Shown here one piece after another: positions 5,537 through 54,052 of a stretch of 64,000 nucleotides of DNA. The first letter of the stretch is position 1, and each line of letters opens with the position of its first letter. The notes beneath the pieces were generated by a model. The model was not told where the DNA came from. It worked only from the letters and a program-made list of their open reading frames with translations, and ran no database searches. The DNA lies in sequence record NC_048186.1, one strand, 5' to 3'. This DNA is from Escherichia phage vB_EcoM_KWBSE43-6. A program made the position numbers and the translations under genes.

Positions 5537-5601
5537 GATGTTGCTCCAAAGAAAAGGGATAGAGCAATAATACCCTATCCCTGTTTATTGAAGAATTAAG
5601 T

Positions 5602-22307: not shown

Positions 22308-22381
22308 TGGAAGGAGCACCAGGATTCGAACCTGAGATCATGGGATCAAAGCCCATTGCCTTACCGCTTGGCTATGCTCCT
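22308..22381 (-). tRNA. tRNA-Gln (anticodon UUG), CCA encoded
   Basis: Manual cloverleaf: acceptor AGGAGCA/TGCTCCT, D-loop GCCAAGCGGTAAGGC, anticodon loop CUUUGAU, T-loop TTCGAAT. Confidence 0.8.
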
Positions 22382-22541
22382 AAAATTGGGAGAGGTACGC
22401 CAGAGTCGAACTGGAAACAGTATTTGACTGGATTATTTGCATTTAGGCCAGTCATCCCCTGTCTTTTGATCTCCACCCCATCTGCGGCCTGGTGCCGGAT
22501 GCACCCAACATTCAGGTTGCGGGAGAACATACCCCTTAATT

Positions 22542-22625
22542 TGGTGAGGGAGGATGGATTCGAACCACCGAAGCCGAAACACCTGATTTACAGTCAGGCC
22601 CATTTGACCACTCTGGTACTCCCCC
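22542..22625 (-). tRNA. tRNA-Tyr (anticodon GUA), long variable arm, CCA encoded
   Basis: Manual fold: anticodon arm CCTGA-CUGUAAA-TCAGG, long variable arm, T-loop TTCGAAT. Confidence 0.75.
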
Positions 22626-23043
22626 GAATTTGGACGGGCTTCTCACCCGATTGTGCATTTGATCTGCCGTAGCCCAACTCCCCGCGTCGTAACGCCGATT
22701 GGTTAACTGGCACCAGTGCCTTCTGGTGTGATCCCTTGGAACTTTACAGGCTTCGCGCCAAACCATTTCTGGTAGTTGGGGCATCGTTTCCGATGTAGGG
22801 TTCCCCCATTTTAACACAGCTGGCTGCAACGCTTACTGTGTTTGTATCAGAGTGTCCGGTGTAGCATTCCGTGAGGTGCGCACTACTGTAGCCTCTACAC
22901 TCTGAATTTGTATGAAGTGGGAATCACTCTCCTGGGTGTCTGTATCCTGCGGCCTTACATTGGCAGCTATCGCGCGATTCGCACTTCCGAAGGCGCTTTG
23001 AGACACTCCACTTCAATTTGATGATGCCACACCACGTCTGGTT

Positions 23044-23114
23044 TGTTGAATCCAGGATTCGAACCTGGGATACCTGCCTTACAGGCGAGTCGCTTTGCCT
23101 CAGCGTTATTCAAC
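23044..23114 (-). tRNA. tRNA, identity uncertain (anticodon loop CUGUAAG, possibly GUA; one mismatch in anticodon stem)
   Basis: Acceptor GTTGAAT/ATTCAAC, T-arm CCAGG-TTCGAAT-CCTGG; anticodon stem imperfect, could be a pseudo-tRNA. Confidence 0.5.
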
Positions 23115-23239
23115 TGGCACCAATTTGGTGGGCGTTACTTTCGTCGGTTTCAGATTCCGTTCGGCTATTGGACGTTGTTCCAAAGAACTTGTCGGTCGCG
23201 TACTTCGTGCTTACTCGCTTTCGTTTCACACCCATTGTC

Positions 23240-23315
23240 TGGCGATGGTGGCAGGACTTGAACCTGCGACATATGGATTAACAGTCCACCGTTCTACCGA
23301 CTGAACTACACCATC
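23240..23315 (-). tRNA. tRNA-Asn (anticodon GUU), CCA encoded
   Basis: Acceptor GATGGTG/CACCATC, D-arm GTTCAGTCGGTAGAAC, anticodon loop CUGUUAA, T-loop TTCAAGT. Confidence 0.8.
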
Positions 23316-23322
23316 ATCAATT

Positions 23323-23409
23323 TGGCGGAAAGTCTGAGATTCGAACTCAGGGGGCATTACACCCGACGATTTTCAAGACCGTTGCCTTAAACCGCTCGGC
23401 CAACTTTCC
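23323..23409 (-). tRNA. tRNA-Ser (anticodon UGA), long variable arm, CCA encoded
   Basis: Acceptor GGAAAGT/ACTTTCC, D-loop GCCGAGCGGTTTAAGGC, anticodon loop CUUGAAA, variable arm CGGGTGTAATGCCCC. Confidence 0.8.
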
Positions 23410-23415
23410 TTTGTA

Positions 23416-23501
23416 TGGTGGAAGATACAGGATTCGAACCTGTGCAACCTTTCGGTTGTACACCTTAGCAGGGTGCTGCAATACCGCTCTGCCAATCTTC
23501 C
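23416..23501 (-). tRNA. tRNA-Ser (anticodon GCU), long variable arm, CCA encoded
   Basis: Acceptor GGAAGAT/ATCTTCC, anticodon loop CUGCUAA, long variable arm, T-loop TTCGAAT. Confidence 0.75.
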
Positions 23502-23692
23502 TATTTATTCGCTTCTATGGCTCGAAGTTGCTTCTCAGCGTCTTCTTTGGATTCATGTGTTCCCAAAACCTTTGTTTTGGTATGGTCCAACACAACCCAA
23601 TGATCACCACGCTTTTCAACAAACTCAACAATTTCTTTGTTGTCAGTCGCAAGACCATCCCATTCAGTTAAGAACTCACCGAACGTTTTCAT
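23501..23692 (-). CDS. small hypothetical protein embedded in tRNA cluster
   Basis: ORF track 23501..23719 (non-ATG start); likely start MMKTFGEF at 23692; protein-like composition. Confidence 0.5.
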   Translation of the reverse strand: MKTFGEFLTEWDGLATDNKEIVEFVEKRGDHWVVLDHTKTKVLGTHESKEDAEKQLRAIEANK

Positions 23693-23919
23693 CATACTCA
23701 CCAATCGTTTATTGAACAACTGGTTTATTTAGGTGCTCCCGAGGCGGTATTTTAATCCCGCGATCCCATCTCGCCTGCCGTAGACCAGAGCTTGTTGGCA
23801 GTCCAACAAATTTGGCGGGGTCTGAGGATTTTCACCTCACCTGCTGGATTGGCCTCCAGCCGTTCTCTCTGGGGACTCGCCGTCCGGACAGCTATCCCTT
23901 AAACTATCGCCCCTTAATA

Positions 23920-23995
23920 TGGTGATCCTGATTGGTTTTGAACCAATGACCAATCGATTATGAGTCGACTGCTCTAACCACTGAGCTACAGGACC
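23920..23995 (-). tRNA. tRNA-Met/Ile-type (anticodon CAU), CCA encoded
   Basis: Acceptor GGTCCTG/CAGGATC, D-arm GCTCAGTGGTTAGAGC, anticodon loop CUCAUAA, T-loop TTCAAAA. Confidence 0.75.
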
Positions 23996-34543: not shown

Positions 34544-34780
34544 ATGAATATAAATTGTGTTTTTGTGAAAGACGAAATTCCCCTTGAGAAACAAGATGAC
34601 TTTTTGAAATTATTTTTGGAAAGAATATCATTGGAATTCTCTGATGTCGTGATAACGGCAGAATGGGGAGACGATGAAACTGCTGTCGTTTCAGAGGATT
34701 GTTCTGATTACGTCAAAGCAAATTATCAAAGATTTGTAGACGGTCTTAAACAAGACCTCATTATTTTCGATTATTTCTAA
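34544..34780 (+). CDS. small acidic hypothetical protein
   Basis: 78-aa ORF starting 2 nt after tailspike stop. Confidence 0.45.
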   Translation: MNINCVFVKDEIPLEKQDDFLKLFLERISLEFSDVVITAEWGDDETAVVSEDCSDYVKANYQRFVDGLKQDLIIFDYF

Positions 34781-34819
34781 ACTAAATACCCCATATTGGT
34801 AACGCCTTATGGGGTATTT
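34781..34819 (+). promoter_or_regulatory. CTAAATA motif embedded in an 11-bp leader hairpin immediately upstream of tailspike start
   Basis: aaataccccat...atggggtattt stem ending 4 nt before ATG 34823; no SD; near-identical architecture to 31469-31509. Confidence 0.4.
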
Positions 34820-34822
34820 CAA

Positions 34823-37402
34823 ATGGCCAGAAACATAGAAGAAATTTTCGGTGGGGTAGTCGTAGCACCACACCAGATCCCGTTCACGTACACTTCAACA
34901 AACGGTGGGGAAACTTTTATATCTCTGCCATTTTATCCCATCACCGGGTTCGTTACTATCAACGGTGGTGTACAGGTCCCTCTTGACAATTTCGAAATAG
35001 ACGGAAACACATTAAATCTTGGTCGAGAACTGGATCCAAGTGATGTTGTGTTCTGTTTGTTCGATAAAATCATGTCACCTCAAGATGCCAGTAACAACGC
35101 AGTTCGAGTTTATAAATTCATCTCTGTTGGAGGAGAAACGGAATTCACTCCAGATTTTACGGCGTATGGTGTCCAATCTCTTTATATCAATGGGAAATAC
35201 CAAATAGCTGGTGAGGATTACACATATTCTAAGACAGATGGGAAAGTTTCTTTTACTACCCCATTAGTTACTGGAGTATGGGTTGCAGCTGAGATGAACA
35301 TAAAGCAAAATATCCCCGCTTTAGCTGGCAATAATGGCGCATCACAAATCGGAACAGAATCAGGGCAAAATGTTCAATTAGAACTCGATTCATTCCGTAA
35401 TTTGTTCGGGGAATATGGGTTTAGCATGATAGGGCAAACCACATATCAAGGATTGAGGAATTATAACGGCAATTCCAATTATATGATGATATATGGTAGA
35501 TCCTATCTTCTAGATGGTGGTCATGGTATATTTGATTTAGTTCCTGGCGGTAATGCCATGACAACCCCTGACGATGATTGTGTGCATATTCGAGATACGT
35601 TGGGGCGGTTATGGCGTCGTAGATTTGAAGACAATGTCATAAGAATGAGCTGGGCGGGTGCTAAAAACCAATTAGAAACATCATCACCACAAGATGATGC
35701 TTTCAGGAACTGCCTGCTTGCGGCCAAATCGTTGTCTCCTACTGGTTATCCACAATCAATCATTAAAGGATTAGACCGTGGTGTAGTTTATCTTGCAGAG
35801 CGGCATTATATCCGTTGTGGTAATTTCCCTGAATATATGGCGTGGAAATTGCCACCTACTGGTGGTGGTGACCGTTTTGGGCTGGATCTGCTGTGTGCAT
35901 TGGGAGAAGGGGCGGGGTTCTTTATCGTCCAAGCTAATAACCCATTGTTGCGCGTCCGGGTAGACAACACTGGTATCCCATTCAATGTTTCGAATTATAC
36001 TGATGCCCAACTTGTGAGTATAGTTGAGAACAATTATATCTTACGTTTGGAATCAATGGTGAACGCTCCGGAATTCGACGTTCATCCAGGTAATTATCCC
36101 GGTACTGTTCTTTACAGCACGGGTAAAAAGGATTATTCTGCAGTAACTGCACAATGGCCTGATTTGGTCCAAGTCTTACCGTCTATACAGAACGTCGGTA
36201 ACGCGGTGTTTAACATAAAAAACTGTGGTCGAGATTTTATGTTAACCAATACTGGGGCTGGGTTGGGTCATTTTCATTCCGTTTGGTCACAAAATAACCG
36301 ACTCCCTGGTTATATATCGAACTGCTATGATTTAACGATGACATATGAAGATTATGTCCCACACAACGAAACATCTGGTGGATTGATATTTAGTGAATGT
36401 GGCACTCTTTCTTTAGAAAATATTTTGATTGGCGCAGGTGGGGTAGGACATTTGTGTATATGGGATTGCCGTAACGTCCATATGAACCGTCATATCTCTA
36501 TATGTGGTAATACCACTTGGGCTGCATCTAACCAAGTAGATGATCTTTATGCTTTAGAAATTTGTAACTCCGAAGTTCATATGAGCGGCGTGCATGCTCA
36601 AAACTCTGGTAAATTCGCACGTGTAGGATTCAATTCACAATTAACGGTTGATCACCTTACTGCATGGGATGTTTCAAAATTATTCTTGATGACGAATGAT
36701 TTGACTAAATTGAAATATCGTGGGCAGCGGCAGGCTGTTACAGGGGACCCGAGCCGGATTTATGTGACATCAGGATTCGCTCAAAACCTTAACGCATCTC
36801 AGTTCGGTTGGGCTTGTGCTCCTGTAATAGAAATCGACAGCACAGTTAACGGTGATTTCAAATTTTATTGGAATTGCTGGACCAATAACGTTCATGCAGG
36901 GTATGGATCTGAATCTGAAGCAAATCTTGCTATTATTAGCGTGGCTTCTACAAGTTCTACAGGATCTGTGTCATTCGGCGAAGACGCTAAATTGGAAGGT
37001 AATACGACGAACTACGTCCTTCGTCTTGCAAACAAAAACCAATTGGGGAAAGTGCGCACTCGTCAAACATCTTTCTGTCGTGTACGTTATACCAATGACA
37101 ACTCACAGTCATCTTTTGCAATGCGCGAAGCTGCTCATGACAATGGAACTACTGTGATCCCTATTGACGGAACAACATACAGCTATCCGTACCGCAGACC
37201 TGCTAAATATTTCGTATCTTTAAACGTCCCTGCTGGTGGTGGTTCATGCTCAGTGACATTAAACGGTATGACGATTTTCCAAACTACGGTAGTCGGGACA
37301 CATGGTATAGTTATTGAAATGAAATACCAAGAAACCGTCGTGTTTACGTCATCCAACGTTACTGTATCGAATGCGCAGTGGCGTTATATTTTGGAGGAAT
37401 AA
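34823..37402 (+). CDS. tailspike protein (beta-helix)
   Basis: Start MARNIEEIFGG (ORF track start 34796 is an upstream extension); large beta-rich repetitive protein in tailspike array. Confidence 0.7.
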   Translation: MARNIEEIFGGVVVAPHQIPFTYTSTNGGETFISLPFYPITGFVTINGGVQVPLDNFEIDGNTLNLGRELDPSDVVFCLFDKIMSPQDASNNAVRVYKFISVGGETEFTPDFTAYGVQSLYINGKYQIAGEDYTYSKTDGKVSFTTPLVTGVWVAAEMNIKQNIPALAGNNGASQIGTESGQNVQLELDSFRNLFGEYGFSMIGQTTYQGLRNYNGNSNYMMIYGRSYLLDGGHGIFDLVPGGNAMTTPDDDCVHIRDTLGRLWRRRFEDNVIRMSWAGAKNQLETSSPQDDAFRNCLLAAKSLSPTGYPQSIIKGLDRGVVYLAERHYIRCGNFPEYMAWKLPPTGGGDRFGLDLLCALGEGAGFFIVQANNPLLRVRVDNTGIPFNVSNYTDAQLVSIVENNYILRLESMVNAPEFDVHPGNYPGTVLYSTGKKDYSAVTAQWPDLVQVLPSIQNVGNAVFNIKNCGRDFMLTNTGAGLGHFHSVWSQNNRLPGYISNCYDLTMTYEDYVPHNETSGGLIFSECGTLSLENILIGAGGVGHLCIWDCRNVHMNRHISICGNTTWAASNQVDDLYALEICNSEVHMSGVHAQNSGKFARVGFNSQLTVDHLTAWDVSKLFLMTNDLTKLKYRGQRQAVTGDPSRIYVTSGFAQNLNASQFGWACAPVIEIDSTVNGDFKFYWNCWTNNVHAGYGSESEANLAIISVASTSSTGSVSFGEDAKLEGNTTNYVLRLANKNQLGKVRTRQTSFCRVRYTNDNSQSSFAMREAAHDNGTTVIPIDGTTYSYPYRRPAKYFVSLNVPAGGGSCSVTLNGMTIFQTTVVGTHGIVIEMKYQETVVFTSSNVTVSNAQWRYILEE

Positions 37403-37404
37403 TA

Positions 37405-37704
37405 ATGATTAAAGCAATCAAAGGGGATTTCACTGCTGTAACTTCAGTAGGAGAAATTTCATATCAATACGCTACTGTCCAGACTTTTCGGGGAGATGCA
37501 ACGAGCGTGACCGTAGATGTATTTCTTTCCGATCGCTGGATTATCCAACGGGACGGGATCAATGTGGTAGATGATACTGCGCCTGGATTTTTCAAATCTG
37601 TACAGTTTGCTCCTGATTGGCAGAGCAGTTTGAATATCATAGATCAGGCTTATGAATATTTGAAAAGTCTTCCAGAGTTTTCAAATTCTACTGATGTTGT
37701 ATAA
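37405..37704 (+). CDS. hypothetical small protein
   Basis: Start MIKAIKGDF with GGAGG SD. Confidence 0.5.
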   Translation: MIKAIKGDFTAVTSVGEISYQYATVQTFRGDATSVTVDVFLSDRWIIQRDGINVVDDTAPGFFKSVQFAPDWQSSLNIIDQAYEYLKSLPEFSNSTDVV

Positions 37705-37738
37705 AGTTAAGGGGGCTAGACCCCCTTAACTTATTTTT
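37705..37738. terminator. bidirectional terminator hairpin
   Basis: agttaagggggctagacccccttaact followed by tatttttc. Confidence 0.65.
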
Positions 37739-37976
37739 CTATTTGTACAACAATCCCGTTTTCTTTTAAAACAGCTTCCAATTGCTCAATATGTAGCCTT
37801 AAATTTGAGTAGACGGTCGCTGCGATCAAAATTTCTTCACTTAATTTAACAGGTGAGTGAAGTGCGTCTATGTTAAAATTTCCTCCTGACGCAATAACTT
37901 TTCCATCTTCGTTAAATGTGTAGATGCAAGGATCTGGTTTATTTTTCTTAATCTTTATCAGTATTTCTTGTTTCCC
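37731..37976 (-). CDS. small protein on opposite strand within tailspike cluster
   Basis: ORF track 37731..38096; likely start MGKQEILIK at 37976 with GGAGA SD; flanked by bidirectional terminator. Confidence 0.45.
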   Translation of the reverse strand, partial: GKQEILIKIKKNKPDPCIYTFNEDGKVIASGGNFNIDALHSPVKLSEEILIAATVYSNLRLHIEQLEAVLKENGIVVQIEK

Positions 37977-38049
37977 CATGATACATATCTCCAGCTGACT
38001 ATGATTTGTACAAACATTGTACCCGAAACCGTTCGTTTGGAATAATACA

Positions 38050-38056
38050 CTAAATA
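38050..38056 (+). promoter_or_regulatory. late-promoter-like motif CTAAATA
   Basis: Located 39 nt upstream of ATG 38095. Confidence 0.35.
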
Positions 38057-38094
38057 CAAGAATCAAGCCACAGAAAAACAACAGGAGATTCATC

Positions 38095-40098
38095 ATGAAT
38101 CCGCAATTTAGTCAGCCCGGTGGTTCCGTCTCTAAAGACGTGAACAAACAATCTATCGCACGTGTATTCTCTAAGAAAAAGAGTGATATATCATATTTGA
38201 AAGTTGGTTCTAGCGTTAATGGTTATGCTGTGCTATTCGAGCCGACAACCCAAACGTGTTGGTTTAGAGGGACTGCAACAGGTAATACAGTTTCTTGGAC
38301 TATCAACAATGATATCATGACTTTAGTGACTTCGGGTGGTTCCTTCACTCTGAACAAAGCCCAAGTTTGGGATTCTGTTACACTTTCCGGTGGAAATGCG
38401 ACGAGTTTGATCGGAACACCTTCTGGTGGAACGTTAGCTAATCTGTTATTACGGACTGTGTCTCCTGCTGAATTCGGATTAGAAAACGATCCAACAGGAG
38501 TCAAAGCAGATAAAAATACCATGGCTGTTCAAAAGGCTATTCGTTACCTGAATTCTTTGGGTGGTGGACGTCTCTTGTTCCCTACTGGGCAATACACATT
38601 TTGCTATGGAATTTGGTTGTTTGACAACATTCTGATCGATCTGAACGGTAGCATCTGTACTTTCAAAAACGCAACTTTTCCATTACGCAGTCGGGCATGT
38701 TTTGTTATGGGTTCTTCTTATGAAGTCAACCGTGACAAGGCTATGAGTTTTTATGATGACGGCACCTACATCAACAACCCAAACCCGACCAATACAGCAT
38801 ATGTGAATTTGCCGTTGGGAACGTTTTTGCGTGACAATGTCAATAAAGCGGAAATCAAAAACGCGCATATAATGAATGGGCATATCAAAGCCACGTTTGA
38901 TTCCCCTACTGCAAACGGTGCTTATGCAATAAATATGGCAAATGCGATGTATTGCACAGCACATGATTTATTCTTTACTGGATTCACAGAAGCCATAAAC
39001 ATGGGTTCGGATACTGGTTCTGAAACTCCGTCTTGCCATGGTTGTCTGGCTCATGATCTTTATATCGTTCAGCCTGACCAAAATAAAACTTATTATTCAA
39101 TTGGTTTTATTTCAAACTCCACCAACTGTTCCATTCAACGGGCGATACAATATCTGCCTTGCGCCGCCGGGACAGAGAACGGGTCGGGTGTGGCTACTAA
39201 CGTCGTTGAAGATTGTATTATAGAGGACATATTCATACCTTCTTTGGGTATTACGCAATCTTCTGAAGGGGTTCTTTTAAACAACGCAAAAGGATGTGTT
39301 GTGAGGAACATTTGTGTCCGAAACTGTAAAGTGGTGGTGGCTGTTTATTATGTCAGCACCAGCTATATCAGTGCTGACAAATGGAATCATATTTCTGGCA
39401 TAACTGGCCAAGGCACAGTTGCATTGATCGCAGTGCGCGGAAAATATACCACATTTACCGGATTCGCTGCGGATTCAACGACGCCGTATGAAATATATTT
39501 CGGGACTACAAACGGATCTAACAACCGTATTGAACAAGAACCGGCTAGTATGTATTTCACAGAGACATCAACGGTCAAACAATATTGGTATTGCAATAAC
39601 AACTACATCAAAGGATGGGTCGTCAAATATCTGTATTTGCGGCCAATGAATACACTGGTGAATGACAAATCTGTTGCATTCAACTGGAACATGAACAAAT
39701 CCGTGTCAGCCAACGATGACACCACGTTGTATTTCTTATGGGAAGTTCCTCCGTCCGTGAAGGCTATAAAGGCGGTCAAACTTTTCGCATATTACAATAC
39801 CAACGCAGTGGCTAAAGGAAGTAATATCAAAATAGAAGTTCGTAGGATGATAGCGTTTGATGGTAACGCTAACACGTTGCCGTACATAGAACCTGCCATT
39901 GGTGCAACTTCTACAGCAACGGTGGATCAACAGAATATAGCCATGAGCGCGGTTCATTCCGATACGGTTAGTCCCGGCATGGTAGTAACTGGCGATACTA
40001 CGAATGGCCTGTCGAATAGTGTTGACATTTTGGTTACGTTTGCCAACACGTCCAAAAACTCTTTAATGAAAGAAATGGAAATTACATACCTGGGGTGA
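38095..40098 (+). CDS. tailspike protein with conserved N-terminal module shared with 40429 gene
   Basis: Start MNPQFSQPGGS with AGGAG SD; N-terminal ~90 aa similar to the next tailspike (QTCWFRGTATG vs QTCWYRGTATG). Confidence 0.7.
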   Translation: MNPQFSQPGGSVSKDVNKQSIARVFSKKKSDISYLKVGSSVNGYAVLFEPTTQTCWFRGTATGNTVSWTINNDIMTLVTSGGSFTLNKAQVWDSVTLSGGNATSLIGTPSGGTLANLLLRTVSPAEFGLENDPTGVKADKNTMAVQKAIRYLNSLGGGRLLFPTGQYTFCYGIWLFDNILIDLNGSICTFKNATFPLRSRACFVMGSSYEVNRDKAMSFYDDGTYINNPNPTNTAYVNLPLGTFLRDNVNKAEIKNAHIMNGHIKATFDSPTANGAYAINMANAMYCTAHDLFFTGFTEAINMGSDTGSETPSCHGCLAHDLYIVQPDQNKTYYSIGFISNSTNCSIQRAIQYLPCAAGTENGSGVATNVVEDCIIEDIFIPSLGITQSSEGVLLNNAKGCVVRNICVRNCKVVVAVYYVSTSYISADKWNHISGITGQGTVALIAVRGKYTTFTGFAADSTTPYEIYFGTTNGSNNRIEQEPASMYFTETSTVKQYWYCNNNYIKGWVVKYLYLRPMNTLVNDKSVAFNWNMNKSVSANDDTTLYFLWEVPPSVKAIKAVKLFAYYNTNAVAKGSNIKIEVRRMIAFDGNANTLPYIEPAIGATSTATVDQQNIAMSAVHSDTVSPGMVVTGDTTNGLSNSVDILVTFANTSKNSLMKEMEITYLG

Positions 40099-40101
40099 TT
40101 T

Positions 40102-40347
40102 ATGCAAAATTCGGCTATGCGTGATGCGTTATCTCTATTTTATGCTTTATACGACTATTTGGTAAACAAAGTGGAATTGACAGAAACAGAAGAATCTGTC
40201 AAATCTAAAATAGAACAAGATATGGGGATACGTTGTGATGATTCATTGGATGAGCAAATCCTACAACTGCAATCAGAACTAAACCAAGCAGTTGAAGAGG
40301 GAGAACGTCACCAAATCTTAGATAATGTGGTTGAACTTTTGAAATAA
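40102..40347 (+). CDS. small helical hypothetical protein
   Basis: 81-aa ORF followed by terminator. Confidence 0.45.
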   Translation: MQNSAMRDALSLFYALYDYLVNKVELTETEESVKSKIEQDMGIRCDDSLDEQILQLQSELNQAVEEGERHQILDNVVELLK

Positions 40348-48449: not shown

Positions 48450-48788
48450 ATGACAACGCAGAATAACAGCTTGTTTAATGTTAAGGAAATCTTGACTGCT
48501 GCCGTTGCATCTCTATTGGTCTCTTCTGCGACATTCGTATGGTTTATGGGTGGATTAGAAAACCGTGTGAATGTTCTGGAAAAAGACTCTGGGAAAGTTG
48601 ACCAGATTTTGATAAAGGTTAATGATCTCAGCGAAAGAATGGCTGTCATGAACAACGATATATCCTACGTTAAACAAAACATGACTGAATTGAAATTAAA
48701 CAGCAGCAGCCTTTCTGACGACGTTAGAACATTGCGCCTGACTGTTTCAGATCTACAGCGCAAGGAGGGTGATAATGGCCGTCAATAA
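48450..48788 (+). CDS. hypothetical protein with TM segment and coiled-coil
   Basis: ORF track 48297..48788; likely start MTTQNNSLFNV; hydrophobic LTAAVASLLVSSATFVWFMGG. Confidence 0.4.
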   Translation: MTTQNNSLFNVKEILTAAVASLLVSSATFVWFMGGLENRVNVLEKDSGKVDQILIKVNDLSERMAVMNNDISYVKQNMTELKLNSSSLSDDVRTLRLTVSDLQRKEGDNGRQ

Positions 48789-49527
48789 GATTCGGGACAA
48801 AGATTCATTTATGAATTATGTCCTTCGTAAATTGGGTGCGCCTGTCATCCAAATCAACCTCGACAAAACACAAGTTGAAGACGCGGTTGATGATGCTTTA
48901 CAGAAGTTTTGGGAGTACCATCGCGACGGTAGCCAAGATGCATTCTTCCTTTACCAGGTGAAGCAGGAAGACATCGATAAAGGATATATCACCTTTCCAG
49001 AAGATATCGATGACGTTGTCGAAGTTATCCAAGGGCCACCAATTGAATCTATCGGTAACTGGGCAACCCCCCAGTGGCAGATGGCTCAGGCGATGTTAGT
49101 GCCCAAAGCTGCTTTGGTATCTATCCGTCTTATCGATTATGTCTCTATGCAGCAGCGCCTTTCCGATATCACCAGCGTCCTCAATGTCCGCAGGGCATTC
49201 GTCTACAAGAAATTCCAGCGCCGTCTGTACCCTCAATTCTCAGCTGTTATCGACGAAGTCCTGGCGTTCAAGTGCTACCAGAACATCGACCCCACAGCGG
49301 AAGAGAACACAGAAGCATGGAATGACATGTGGCTGAAGGCTTATGCGACCGCATTGGTAAAACGCCGCTGGGCGGAAGTGCTCAAAAAGGCCCGAGGCAT
49401 CCGTCTCCCTGGCGGGATAGAACTGGATGGCGATAGTATGTTCAGCGAGGCCGAGGCCGAGATCGAGCGCCTGGAAGAAGAACTGCGTACTGGTCAGCAG
49501 TATCCCATCGACTTCTTTATGGGATAA
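48775..49527 (+). CDS. neck protein (T4 gp13-like by position)
   Basis: Start MAVNKIRDKD with GAGGG SD; synteny with gp13-gp14-gp15-gp16-gp17 order. Confidence 0.5.
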   Translation: MAVNKIRDKDSFMNYVLRKLGAPVIQINLDKTQVEDAVDDALQKFWEYHRDGSQDAFFLYQVKQEDIDKGYITFPEDIDDVVEVIQGPPIESIGNWATPQWQMAQAMLVPKAALVSIRLIDYVSMQQRLSDITSVLNVRRAFVYKKFQRRLYPQFSAVIDEVLAFKCYQNIDPTAEENTEAWNDMWLKAYATALVKRRWAEVLKKARGIRLPGGIELDGDSMFSEAEAEIERLEEELRTGQQYPIDFFMG

Positions 49528-49529
49528 CA

Positions 49530-49558
49530 AAAAGCCGGGGTTTCCCGGCTTTCTTTTA
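49530..49558. terminator. bidirectional terminator hairpin
   Basis: agccggggtttcccggct with T-runs on both strands. Confidence 0.6.
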
Positions 49559-49768
49559 GAGTTTGATATCCCGAGGGCCGGGTAGCGCAGTCGCCTGAAT
49601 ATACCCATCATGGACGTTATTACTGTCCCACCATTCAATGAAGTCATTCCCGTCAGATTGTTTTACCAAACCGACGATATCATAATCACCACCTGCAATT
49701 TTAGCATCCACACAGATGATTCTTACTCGACTTCCATCACGAGTTTCTTTGATATCTTCTACTTGCAT
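49556..49768 (-). CDS. small protein on opposite strand within neck module
   Basis: 70-aa ORF MQVEDIKETRDGSRVRIICVDAK... with protein-like composition, bracketed by terminator and late promoter motif. Confidence 0.4.
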   Translation of the reverse strand: MQVEDIKETRDGSRVRIICVDAKIAGGDYDIVGLVKQSDGNDFIEWWDSNNVHDGYIQATALPGPRDIKL

Positions 49769-49789
49769 TCATCAATTCCTCAATAGAAT

Positions 49790-49796: not shown

Positions 49797-49827
49797 CGAC
49801 TAAATACCTTCAAAATTGAGGGTATAG

Positions 49828-50471
49828 TCATGGCCACTTCAAAATATTTCAACTACACGAACCACCAAGGCACGCAGAAGTTAATTGATGACCTCGTGGT
49901 GGAGATGATACAATTACGTGGGATCGACGTCAAGTATATTCCACGCGCCATTTATGAAAAATACCCAATTTTAAACGAAGCCGAACATCGTTTCGACCAG
50001 GCGTTTGATATTGAGGTCTATATGCAGGATTATCAGGGCTTCAACACCCAAATGTGGGAGAAGTTCGGTGGTATCCAGCTACAAGATGAGGTGACATTTA
50101 CTATCGCCCGTCGCCGCTTTGCGGAAGTTATTGGTAACGGACCAGGACTGGATCAACAACCTCAGGAAGGGGATCTCATTTATCTTCCGATGGCGAATAA
50201 AATATTCAAGGTCAATAACCCGAATAATGACGAAGACTTCATGCAATTCGGTAAATGGTACACGTATTCATTACCATGTACCTTGTTCCAGTATGGCAAC
50301 GAAGACTTCGATACTGGTGTCCCTGAAATTGATGATATTGATAAACGTCTTCAAGATCTTGAAGGTGATGGGGTTTACCAGGATGCTACTCTCCAAACAG
50401 ACAACCAGTTTGCTGATGAGATCGAAGAAGATCTGGCCCCCAATAATGTCAAAATAGATTTTGGAGAATAA
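49828..50471 (+). CDS. neck protein (T4 gp14-like by position)
   Basis: Start MATSKYFNYT with GAGGG SD (ORF track start 49716 is an upstream extension). Confidence 0.5.
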
Positions 50472-51174: not shown

Positions 51175-51861
51175 ATGTCTAATATGTCGGAACGTTTGTT
51201 ACAGACCTTAGATGCTGTCTCAGCACGAGATGAGGTTGCTCAAGATGCGATGAAGAAAACCGCATTGAAGCCCGGTGTTGATTATGATGAAGAAACGGGG
51301 GAGTGGTTAGGTGATCCCCCGGAAGGGTATCAAGGATTCGAGATGCCACCATCATTGTCTGAAGTCGCATCAAAAGAATCAAAAGTTCCTGAATACGAGG
51401 ACACTGACGCCACGACTGACTACAAACGTATTCGTGACACCACATATGCTATGCAAGAAGCCACGATGTTCATGATGGGCAAGGCCGCTGAACTCGCCGC
51501 TTCTACAGAGGCTCCTCGTGCATTCAGCGTCTTCCGCGAGCTGGGTGAACTCATGCGTGGTCTCAATAAAGACTTGATGGAAAACCAGAAAACCATCAAG
51601 GATGTTACTCGCGACAAAGAACCGCCGGGACAGACCACCGTTGAGGTTTCTGAAGATGAAAATGGAACGACTACAGTCAAAGTCGGTAAGACTGCTCGTT
51701 CGTCCAGAGATCTTCTCCAGATGATTGAGAAAGTTCGACGTGATGCCGAAGCCAATCGAAATTCTCGCGTCAACCCCGATGAAGAAGTAATTGACGTCGC
51801 GGAAGAACCAAAACAGGAAGATAAGTCAGAGGGCGAGGACAATGGCGTATCCGAAGCGTGA
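51175..51861 (+). CDS. terminase small subunit (T4 gp16-like by position)
   Basis: ORF track start 51169 is a TTG codon; ATG at 51175 with GAGGA SD; acidic C-terminus; immediately upstream of and overlapping the large terminase. Confidence 0.55.
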   Translation: MSNMSERLLQTLDAVSARDEVAQDAMKKTALKPGVDYDEETGEWLGDPPEGYQGFEMPPSLSEVASKESKVPEYEDTDATTDYKRIRDTTYAMQEATMFMMGKAAELAASTEAPRAFSVFRELGELMRGLNKDLMENQKTIKDVTRDKEPPGQTTVEVSEDENGTTTVKVGKTARSSRDLLQMIEKVRRDAEANRNSRVNPDEEVIDVAEEPKQEDKSEGEDNGVSEA

Positions 51862-54052
51862 AGTCGAATATGCCCCGGTCAAGACGGGGTTTAAAATTGA
51901 AGACGTCAAATTGCGTATGGACCAAACGTTCATGCGCAAGCCGACTGTGCGTGCTCCTCGTGTTGAATTAGTCCTTACTGATGAGCAAGAAGATGAATAT
52001 GTCAAGTGTGCCATGGACGCACACTATTTCGCTGCGAACTATTACAAGATCACCACTATCGACCACGGCTTCATCTTGTTCGATATGCATGATTATCAGA
52101 AGCAATTGTTCCATGATTTCCAGGATCATCGATTCAATGCTGTCGTACAGGCTCGTCAGTCTGGTAAATGTGTTCGGGGCGACTCTGAAGTTTATGTTTA
52201 CGATACTCTCAGCCAGGAAGAGTTCTCTATCACCATAGAGGAGCTTCACAGCCGCTTCGAGGACGTTAACCATGCAGAGCCGTTGAATACCATTGGCAAA
52301 CACAATAAGTTCGTAGATAGCCGCTTCGGCAAACGATACTTTGTGAAGTCTGATAGTGGTTGGGTTCCTGTAATAGCAGCACACAAGACAAAAGAATATG
52401 CAGAATATGTGGTAAAAACTGAAAGTGGTCGGACGATTCATGTCGCGGACGAACATCTATTCTTTAATGAATATAATAGTGAGGTTTTCGCCAAAGATCT
52501 GGAAGCCGGGGATGCCATCATGACGCAAGATGGCCTTGAATGTATTTCTGAAATTTGGGAAACCGGCGAATCTCACCACATGTTTGACCTCCAGGTGAAA
52601 TCATCTGAGCAGCGTTATTACACCAATGGGTTCCTGAGCCATAATACGACAGTGGTGGCGGCATTTCTCCTCTGGTACGCGATGTTCAACTCTGACAAAG
52701 AGATCGCGGTTCTTGCGAACAAAGAGAAACAGGCTATTGAAATCCTGGATCGTATTCGTAAAGCATATCAGGACATGCCATTCTTCGTCCAGCAAGGTTG
52801 TGAGAAATTTGGTTCAACCCTGATTGAATTCGAGAACGGTTCGAAGATCTTTGCATACGCGACTTCCTCGGACTCCATCCGTGGTCGTTCTGTATCTCTC
52901 CTGTATGTGGACGAAGTCGCATTCATCGAAAACGACTTTGAATTCTGGGAATCAACTTTCCCGGCGATCGCCCAGGCAGAGACTTCGAAGTGTATCCTCA
53001 CCAGTACACCAAAAGGTCAGCGCGGGCTGTTTTACGACATCGTCACGAAGGCGAACCCAGAACATCCTCAATACAACGACTTCAATCTTACGGAAGTTCC
53101 TTGGTACAGGGTTCCGGCGTACACCAAAGACCCGAATTGGGAATCCAAACAACGTGCCAAACTTGGCGACGCTCGTTTCGATCAGGAATTCGGTATCAAG
53201 TTCCGTGGTTCTGTCGGTTCATTAATACCGTCGAAATGTCTGGACAAGATGACATCCAAGTTGTATCAGGAGCCGAATGAGTTCACCAAAATCTACAAAC
53301 CCTTTGACAAAACCAGAACATATTTTGGTATTGCGGATACAGGCAAAGGGGTTGAGGGGGACTACTCTGTGCTGACCATATTGGACATCACGGAATATCC
53401 TCATACGATTGCAGCCAAATACCGGAACAACACGATACCGCCGATGATGTATGCATACACGATTGCCGATATGTGTACTCAATACGGTGAATGCCCTGTG
53501 CTTGTAGAGACCAACAATGATGTTGGTGGCCAGGTGATCACAATCCTGTATCAAGAAATTGAATATCCGGAAATCGTGTTTACATCAACGGACAATAAGG
53601 GTACTGGTAAGAAGATCGGCGGTCGTCGTCCTGAACCAGGGATCAACACCAACAAGAAAGTTCGCTCTATCGGTTGTGCTAACCTGAAAGCACTTATCGA
53701 AAGAGAGATGTTGGTAATCGAAGACCAGGATACGATTGATGAACTGAGTACGTTCGTGTTTACTGGGACCCGCTATGAGGCCGATCAGGGTTGTCATGAC
53801 GACTGCGTTATGCCACTTGTTTTATATTCATGGGCTGTAAAACAGGAATGGTTCAGTGATTTAACTGATACCAGCATTTCTCGAGATATGCGCGGTCGTA
53901 TGAATGCGATGGAGCAACACCAAGTCCTCCCGTTTGGGGGCAAATTTACTGGTGATACCCCTCATGAAGTACAGCATATGCCGGGCTTTGGGGGTGTGAA
54001 TGTATTTGATGAACGTTCTGGGATGTCAATGGAAGAGTGGTTCAAGAACTGA
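51842..54052 (+). CDS. terminase large subunit (T4 gp17-like) interrupted by a mini-intein
   Basis: Start MAYPKREVEY; Walker A reads RQSGK|C...HN|TTVVAAF, rejoining to RQSGKTTVVA like T4 QLGKTTVVA as recalled; downstream LLYVDEVAFI resembles T4 MIYIEDCAFI. Confidence 0.9.
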   Translation: MAYPKREVEYAPVKTGFKIEDVKLRMDQTFMRKPTVRAPRVELVLTDEQEDEYVKCAMDAHYFAANYYKITTIDHGFILFDMHDYQKQLFHDFQDHRFNAVVQARQSGKCVRGDSEVYVYDTLSQEEFSITIEELHSRFEDVNHAEPLNTIGKHNKFVDSRFGKRYFVKSDSGWVPVIAAHKTKEYAEYVVKTESGRTIHVADEHLFFNEYNSEVFAKDLEAGDAIMTQDGLECISEIWETGESHHMFDLQVKSSEQRYYTNGFLSHNTTVVAAFLLWYAMFNSDKEIAVLANKEKQAIEILDRIRKAYQDMPFFVQQGCEKFGSTLIEFENGSKIFAYATSSDSIRGRSVSLLYVDEVAFIENDFEFWESTFPAIAQAETSKCILTSTPKGQRGLFYDIVTKANPEHPQYNDFNLTEVPWYRVPAYTKDPNWESKQRAKLGDARFDQEFGIKFRGSVGSLIPSKCLDKMTSKLYQEPNEFTKIYKPFDKTRTYFGIADTGKGVEGDYSVLTILDITEYPHTIAAKYRNNTIPPMMYAYTIADMCTQYGECPVLVETNNDVGGQVITILYQEIEYPEIVFTSTDNKGTGKKIGGRRPEPGINTNKKVRSIGCANLKALIEREMLVIEDQDTIDELSTFVFTGTRYEADQGCHDDCVMPLVLYSWAVKQEWFSDLTDTSISRDMRGRMNAMEQHQVLPFGGKFTGDTPHEVQHMPGFGGVNVFDERSGMSMEEWFKN
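52169..52645 (+). mobile_element. mini-intein (159 aa, Hint domain, no endonuclease domain evident) in terminase P-loop
   Basis: Begins with Cys (CVRGDSEV), ends with HN followed by Thr +1 residue; block F-like MFDLQV...YYTNGFLSHN; removal restores the Walker A motif. Confidence 0.8.

Follow-up and report, generated by a model that had tools for sequence, protein, structure and literature searches.

Two small genes lie on the minus strand among the late plus-strand genes of Escherichia phage vB_EcoM_KWBSE43-6, and on balance we favour a joint reading in which both are genuine and separately transcribed, each from a putative promoter of its own. ORF A, in the tailspike cluster, would be a passenger of a mobile tailspike cassette, and ORF B, in the neck module, a core gene that forms an antisense unit. 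The window, that is, the whole 64,000-nucleotide stretch of record NC_048186.1 that was analysed, covers the late plus-strand half of a ~158-kb Taipeivirus-like phage of the Ackermannviridae. Both genes are already annotated as hypothetical proteins and their arrangement is ordinary phage genome architecture. As the original prediction stated, the two minus-strand frames are present in gaps between plus-strand late genes, and selection specific to their frames identifies both as real genes.

Korf et al. (PMC6563267) described KWBSE43-6 as a phage of E. coli that comes nearest to the Klebsiella 0507-KN2-1-like group and varies mostly in the receptor-binding cluster. The DNA of the neck region is 96-99% identical to that of Klebsiella Taipeivirus genomes, and the tailspike region matches these genomes only in patches. 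Two promoter-like motifs, CTAAATAcCcc and TTCAAT-N14-TATAAT, have been named for Ackermannviridae (PMC7283392). CTAAATA is enriched in the window, with 16 matches against 6.2 expected, a count reached in 0 of 100 shuffles. Copies at 34782, 38050 and 49800 on the plus strand each stand directly 5' of a late gene:

34782..34791, plus strand: late-promoter motif CTAAATACCC, at the left boundary of the cassette also found in Klebsiella phage Bullseye_ER20
38050..38056, plus strand: late-promoter motif CTAAATA, belonging to the tailspike gene that comes next (ATG at 38095), within the ORF A upstream region
49800..49809, plus strand: late-promoter motif CTAAATACCT, between ORF B and the gp14-like gene

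The plus-strand late-promoter motif that had been proposed to lie beside ORF B is therefore real, given this copy and the enrichment of CTAAATA. The motif scan of the window found no minus-strand CTAAATA near ORF A or ORF B, and TTCAAT-N14-TATAAT is likewise absent 5' of both genes (for ORF A, none within 2 mismatches). The window as a whole is enriched in this second motif, with 22 matches when up to 2 mismatches are allowed and 9.2 expected. Its best copies, which have the extended form TTCAATAA, are found in the early half of the window at the minus-strand positions 5567, 8120, 12334, 21386, 23691 and 27270. A literature search for Ackermannviridae transcriptomes (RNA-seq) or virion structures returned nothing usable.

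The coordinates first proposed for ORF A, 37731-37976, place the gene correctly and end 3 nt short, the true end being 37979. The GGAGA ribosome-binding site assigned to it is confirmed at its expected place.

37731..37979, minus strand: ORF A coding sequence, 82 aa, 9.1 kDa, pI 6.1
37988..37992, minus strand: GGAGA Shine-Dalgarno sequence of ORF A, 8 nt 5' of the ATG
37980..38096, minus strand: in-frame upstream extension of ORF A (121-aa form), judged non-coding

The open frame spans 37731-38096 (121 aa), and the supported start is the ATG at 37979-37977. The product is 100% identical to HOV43_gp211 of vB_EcoM_KWBSE43-6, which has 82 aa in RefSeq. In Bullseye_ER20, the only phage record to share the gene, a weaker GGGT stands at the place of the Shine-Dalgarno sequence. 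The annotation of that phage gives a longer version of 120 aa, and it could be argued that ORF A is truly a membrane-anchored protein of 121 aa starting at 38096, as the frame is open to this point in both phages and the added N-terminus is hydrophobic. However, the 27 nt just 5' of the internal ATG are scrambled between the two phages (TNHSQLEICI versus VQSQTAGYNI in translation). Beyond them, the DNA is ~98% identical backbone, in which the next tailspike gene has its late motif, A-rich leader and Shine-Dalgarno sequence. The hydrophobic stretch is accounted for by this overlap, since its Leu- and Phe-rich codons are the antisense of that leader and Shine-Dalgarno sequence. Moreover, no Shine-Dalgarno sequence precedes 38096, the start there would overlap the tailspike ATG, the homologues of ORF A have no such extension and RefSeq takes the 82-aa form. 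For these reasons we regard the 120-aa annotation as an over-extension and the membrane-anchored form as very unlikely. The annotation is clarified to this extent: the start of ORF A is fixed, the long form is argued to be an artefact, and a passenger gene is separated from a core gene.

Minus-strand open frames as long as ORF A or ORF B are common by chance in this region, and the status of both as genes is based on evolutionary evidence instead of frame length. Over the 82 codons, ORF A differs from its Bullseye_ER20 counterpart at 51 of 249 bases, and ~30 of the changes are synonymous. The resulting dN/dS is 0.11 (dS 1.08), compared with 0.29-2.5 in the other five frames; for ORF B, dN/dS is 0.055-0.20. 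Sequence comparison thus places both genes under purifying selection, and the frames are conserved, as had been expected of real genes. That either or both are chance open frames in intergenic DNA is a reading favoured by the sheer number of similar frames; it is barely credible in view of purifying selection specific to the frame in both cases, homologues in unrelated phages and, for ORF B, a confidently predicted fold.

ORF A is nonetheless very rare. By tblastn it was found in 1 of 50,697 phage records, that of Bullseye_ER20, and this is also the only one of 44 phage records sharing the adjacent conserved tailspike N-terminus that has the gene. A word-indexed search of 5.8 billion proteins matched ORF A to itself only. 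A HMMER profile scan of 1.84 billion cluster representatives returned P0001 (the same protein) and two true relatives, P0035 and P0042, and profile search gave a further one, P0061, which is a paralog of P0035. Besides Bullseye_ER20, only three relatives are found among ~15 billion proteins searched via cluster representatives.

P0035 is encoded on three 4-kb contigs (L003-L005) that resemble the Seifer/YMC16-like 58-kb Klebsiella siphophages; on L003 it is the last gene in an operon of small genes, with P0061 immediately 5' of it. At L003:2437-2965, the ORF A family takes the form of two tandem overlapping paralogs of 103 aa and 83 aa, preceded by genes for a predicted membrane protein (58 aa) and a zinc-ribbon-like protein (85 aa). 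P0042 comes from a lambdoid phage contig, where its gene stands just 5' of ninB and no tailspike is close. A search of 5,426 complete E. coli genomes matched the ninB flank but not P0042 itself, and tblastn of P0042 against the phage collection gave no match. Within the window, neither ORF A nor ORF B has a paralog.

The composition of ORF A is deviant, with a GC content of 33.3% against 46.1% for the window and 42% and 40% for the neighbouring genes. Members of its family are also lower in GC than their surroundings elsewhere (48% versus 53.5% on L003; 39% versus 52% on contig L006).

The profile search also gave matches made of multiple stretches, which would make ORF A a WD40-repeat protein. 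They were set aside as chance similarity. The two that were read (P0057 and P0059) are WD40-repeat proteins in which the match is one motif of ~15 residues (FNEDGKVIASGGN versus FSPDGKTLASGG), and ORF A, at 82 aa and mostly helical after residue 48 in a low-confidence model, lacks several tandem WD40 blades.

The surroundings of ORF A include the following features:

34823..37402, plus strand: tailspike gene, 859 aa from the ATG, in the cassette shared with Bullseye_ER20
37405..37704, plus strand: p99, a 99-aa gene (phrog_18037) invariably found behind this type of tailspike
37704..37732, both strands: hairpin terminator common to the p99 gene (plus) and ORF A (minus)
38016..38021, minus strand: candidate -10 box TACAAT (TATGAT in Bullseye_ER20), 36 nt before the ORF A ATG

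The block 34772-38301 takes in the late motif, the tailspike gene with p99, and the hairpin with ORF A, and reaches ~70 codons into the next tailspike gene. It is 86.8% identical to Bullseye_ER20, compared with ~93% for the genome backbone, and the tailspike-cluster DNA on either side of it is unrelated to that phage. Measured against Bullseye_ER20, omega across the block is 0.024 for the tailspike gene, 0.12 for p99 and 0.11 for ORF A, all indicative of purifying selection. The C-terminal part of the tailspike is common to siphophages. On L003-L005, the ORF A homologue (46% identity) converges on a p99 homologue (52.5%) and on the C-terminal part of a tailspike (73% over 319 aa). The convergent trio of tailspike, p99 and ORF A is hence common to Taipeivirus and to unrelated Seifer-like siphophage contigs. 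Siphophages of the genus Webervirus have the same tailspike type with p99 and without ORF A.

We propose a cassette in the order late promoter, tailspike, p99, hairpin and then ORF A on the opposite strand. Its functional unit would be the tailspike together with p99, and ORF A, AT-rich and accessory, would occupy the outer end of this mobile late cassette as a passenger at the convergent junction, carried along when the cassette moved. The presence of p99 behind the same tailspike type in three unrelated lineages suggests, by synteny, that it is a tailspike-specific helper. ORF A is classed as a moron-like accessory passenger because it is rare, travels with the tailspike and p99, and is missing from other genomes that have this pair.

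Linkage in two unrelated lineages could instead mean a functional tie rather than hitch-hiking, with ORF A as a partner of the tailspike and p99, for example an assembly or regulatory factor for that receptor-binding module. The recurrence of the trio in Taipeivirus and the Seifer-like contigs, in spite of only 46% identity between the ORF A proteins, and the similar omega of ORF A and p99 (0.11 and 0.12) would fit such a role. The Webervirus genomes, which do without ORF A, speak against it, as do the homologue 5' of ninB in a lambdoid phage, the position of the L003 homologue at the end of a small-gene operon with a paralog just upstream, and the location of ORF A on the opposite strand, where it has no late motif. 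We consider a partnership unlikely. The passenger reading is the simplest one that the comparisons allow, and ORF A is nonetheless kept intact by purifying selection.

Modular tailspike or depolymerase cassettes are familiar from Ackermannviridae and from Klebsiella phages, the CBA120 TSP1-4 cluster being an example. The present cluster is similar in that each tailspike has its own late motif (31470, 34782, 38050 and 40382), and in that another Taipeivirus has one of the units in full and siphophages have the distal part of it. Known descriptions of such cassettes concern the tailspikes and not small linked genes such as p99, p81 and ORF A. The tailspike cassettes of Klebsiella phages can now be said to carry small linked genes, p99 always and ORF A sometimes, and engineering of host range by tailspike swap would move or lose them.

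Several further observations concern the tailspike cluster. CTAAATA stands just 5' of every tailspike gene and of the gene for a 1616-aa virion protein (31470, 34782, 38050, 40382 and 43287), and since each gene has its own copy, the cluster is a row of separate late units, not a single operon. A small plus-strand gene directly follows each of two tailspike genes, namely p99 (37405-37704) and p81 (phrog_19895, 40102-40347). The tailspike encoded at 34823-37402 is similar in its C-terminal part to those of phages infecting K. quasipneumoniae ATCC 700603 (Bullseye, Bubbly_ER22, LHC_ER2, KX1 and P700603). KWBSE43-6 itself was isolated on E. coli and formed no plaques on the 19 Klebsiella strains tested (PMC6563267).

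The hairpin between p99 and ORF A has a predicted folding energy of -19.5 kcal/mol on the plus strand and -20.2 kcal/mol on the minus strand (z -4.0 and -5.4), with a good U-run on the plus strand only. The candidate -10 box of ORF A has a poor -35 and was not reported by the consensus promoter scan. ORF A may be expressed from a weak promoter of its own that overlaps the late promoter of the next tailspike gene. Its protein is predicted to be soluble, with no signal peptide and no membrane segment. A structural model built from a two-sequence alignment reached a pLDDT of 45, unusable for fold search, and shows at this low confidence a beta-hairpin followed by a long helix. The family gave nothing meaningful against Pfam, PHROGs, NCBIfam or in a profile search of PDB sequences. 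For both ORF A and ORF B, Pfam, PHROG and NCBIfam gave no nuclease domain (HNH, GIY-YIG, LAGLIDADG or T5orf172), and neither locus matched an Rfam family. The ORF A product may be a soluble cytoplasmic protein with an accessory role in host interaction, a proposal in which we have low confidence.

Morons of lambdoid and other tailed phages are extra genes with their own expression signals, placed between conserved genes. ORF A resembles them in being present in very few close relatives, in being AT-rich compared with its surroundings, in lying between two conserved late genes and in ending at its own hairpin (-20.2 kcal/mol on the minus strand, where the U-run is poor). Three of the four features of a moron, namely patchy presence, deviant composition and an own terminator, were accordingly found. 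Unlike classical morons, ORF A came inside a larger tailspike cassette and not as a single-gene insertion, its promoter is a candidate only and, KWBSE43-6 being virulent, there is no lysogen to benefit from it. The suggestion that the antisense genes are moron-like insertions therefore holds for ORF A, on the strength of its occurrence in 1 of 44 related records, its GC content (33% versus 46%), its hairpin and the mobility of its cassette. It fails for ORF B, which is a core gene. A comparison of presence and absence across phages, which had been proposed as a check, separates the two in the same way: ORF A is patchy (1 of 50,697 records) and ORF B occurs in 288 records and in four genera.

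ORF B lies exactly at the coordinates first proposed and encodes 70 aa:

49556..49768, minus strand: ORF B coding sequence, 70 aa, 7.8 kDa, pI 4.5; PHROG 4466
49776..49781, minus strand: GAGGAA Shine-Dalgarno sequence of ORF B, 9 nt from GAGG to the ATG, conserved in relatives
48775..49527, plus strand: gp13-like neck gene, converging on ORF B
49830..50471, plus strand: gp14-like neck gene, diverging from ORF B

The protein matches phrog_4466 over its full length (E 1.4e-41, residues 1-70 on profile positions 1-70); PHROG 4466 is a phage family with no assigned function, of which ORF B is a member that differs in nothing. By tblastn it matches 288 phage records, which are Ackermannviridae-type genomes wherever examined. 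The gene is antisense between gp13-like and gp14-like genes in Menlow (Taipeivirus), Maynard (Kuttervirus) and RC-2014 (Limestonevirus), and is present, unannotated, at the same position in phiEa2809 (Nezavisimistyvirus). An IMG/VR contig of 158,607 bp (L012) carries it at 100% identity. More distant relatives of the domain, in Vibrio phages, occur in other contexts. Judged by this distribution, ORF B is a core gene of enterobacterial Ackermannviridae and not an insertion, and it fails as a moron since it is found in so many records at a position fixed in four genera.

An alignment of 33 ORF B proteins has 29 invariant columns. The AlphaFold2 model (pLDDT 91.7) is an all-beta small barrel, for which Foldseek found nothing significant in the PDB and only uncharacterised phage proteins in BFVD. 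For neither ORF A nor ORF B was there a match to a family, PDB sequence or fold that would give a function. As modelled, the ORF B product, a small acidic beta-barrel, most likely binds another cytoplasmic protein and would not be part of the virion. The proteins of both genes are candidate small host-interaction proteins.

Two features on either side of the gene bear on its expression:

49905..49933, minus strand: sigma70-like promoter candidate TTGACG-17-TATCAT, antisense in codons 26-35 of the gp14-like gene
49531..49552, both strands: bidirectional hairpin terminator between the gp13-like gene and ORF B, an annotated terminator in Menlow and Maynard

The promoter candidate matches 10 of 12 consensus positions. 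It is kept in Taipeivirus and Kuttervirus; in Limestonevirus the first base of the -10 box is changed (AATCAT), and in phiEa2809 the site is absent. As the site is within coding sequence, its conservation is confounded with constraint on the gp14 protein. At the third positions of gp14 in 20 distinct sequences, codons 34-36 are invariant and codon 33 is the same in 19 of 20; the -35 box falls within these codons. Such invariance agrees with additional constraint at the DNA level and is modest support, given that other short invariant runs exist and informative sites are few. The hairpin has predicted energies of -15.7 kcal/mol on the plus strand and -18.0 kcal/mol on the minus strand, with U-runs on both.

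Both ORFs had been described as bracketed by bidirectional terminators. This description did not survive: one strong hairpin goes with each ORF, at the 3' end and shared with the converging gene, and no terminator was found 5' of ORF A or ORF B.

We propose that ORF B makes up an antisense unit by itself, flanked by the gp13-like and gp14-like genes. The sigma70 RNA polymerase of the host would start at TTGACG-17-TATCAT inside the 5' end of gp14, and the transcript would then run antisense over the gp14 start and the late promoter, through ORF B, to the bidirectional hairpin. The same hairpin would also terminate the late transcript that finishes with gp13, which explains why gp14 carries its own late promoter; at CTAAATACCT, late transcription would begin anew and read into the gp14-like gene and those that follow it.

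A nuclease-like gene of the T5orf172/MUG113 type, 238-309 aa long, separates gp14 from ORF B in some Kuttervirus- and Limestonevirus-like genomes (L019:753-1469 and L021:540-1469, and also on L020, L022 and L027). It is on the ORF B strand, which makes a two-gene antisense unit, and its product has CapR and zinc-ribbon repeats; in Kuttervirus it ends 31 nt 5' of ORF B. By its gene order, this arrangement agrees with an antisense unit whose start lies towards gp14 and which mobile genes have exploited.

Homing-endonuclease-type insertions occur in the late regions of T4-like phages. The nuclease-like gene of Kuttervirus, in the same antisense slot beside ORF B, is like such insertions; ORF A and ORF B themselves, with no nuclease domain, are unlike them. 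The neck module of Ackermannviridae thus has a conserved antisense slot with a bidirectional terminator, used by ORF B and by nuclease-like mobile genes. This slot splits the late operon and could serve as a safe insertion site.

Genes of interacting virion parts tend to remain neighbours. By this argument from adjacency, the position of ORF B between two neck genes, fixed across four genera, could be explained if it were a late-made factor for neck assembly or head completion, or a minor virion protein. The gene is, however, on the opposite strand, where it has a sigma70-like promoter candidate upstream instead of CTAAATA; the related domains of Vibrio phages sit in other contexts; and ORF B evolves faster than gp14 (dN 0.096 versus 0.016, compared with IME250). 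A structural role is in our view improbable.

Somewhat less probable again is a unit that acts mainly at the level of RNA, in which antisense transcription would delay or tune the late operon from gp14 to terminase. A start near 49900 is predicted to give ~130 nt of transcript antisense to the 5' end, ribosome-binding site and late promoter of gp14. The protein itself is strongly conserved, however (29 invariant columns, omega ~0.06-0.2), and so an RNA-only role would not be the whole story; nor does the site match any Rfam family.

A still more speculative proposal joins the two levels, with ORF B as an early protein throughout the family that uses its Tudor-like barrel to bind a host hub, for example the beta subunit of RNA polymerase, in addition to an antisense hold on the gp14-to-terminase operon. 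We give it very little credence. If true, it would amount to a two-level timing switch conserved across enterobacterial Ackermannviridae. Known Tudor/SH3-like barrels with which ORF B may be compared are PipX, the RNA-polymerase-interacting domains of CarD and Mfd, and the KOW domain of NusG. The reading of ORF B that we retain is that of a core gene in its own antisense unit, encoding a small protein that probably acts in the cytoplasm.

Two minor observations were made elsewhere in the window. Seven tRNA genes are clustered on the minus strand at 22311-23995 (Rfam RF00005, 41-76 bits). The gene for the large terminase subunit (51842-54052) encodes an insert at approximately residues 123-228, where the Walker A region reads GK|CVRGD...FLSHN|T. 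The insert matches the Pfam intein splicing domain below threshold (28 bits against a cut-off of 35.8), and its sequence and position at Walker A suggest a mini-intein.
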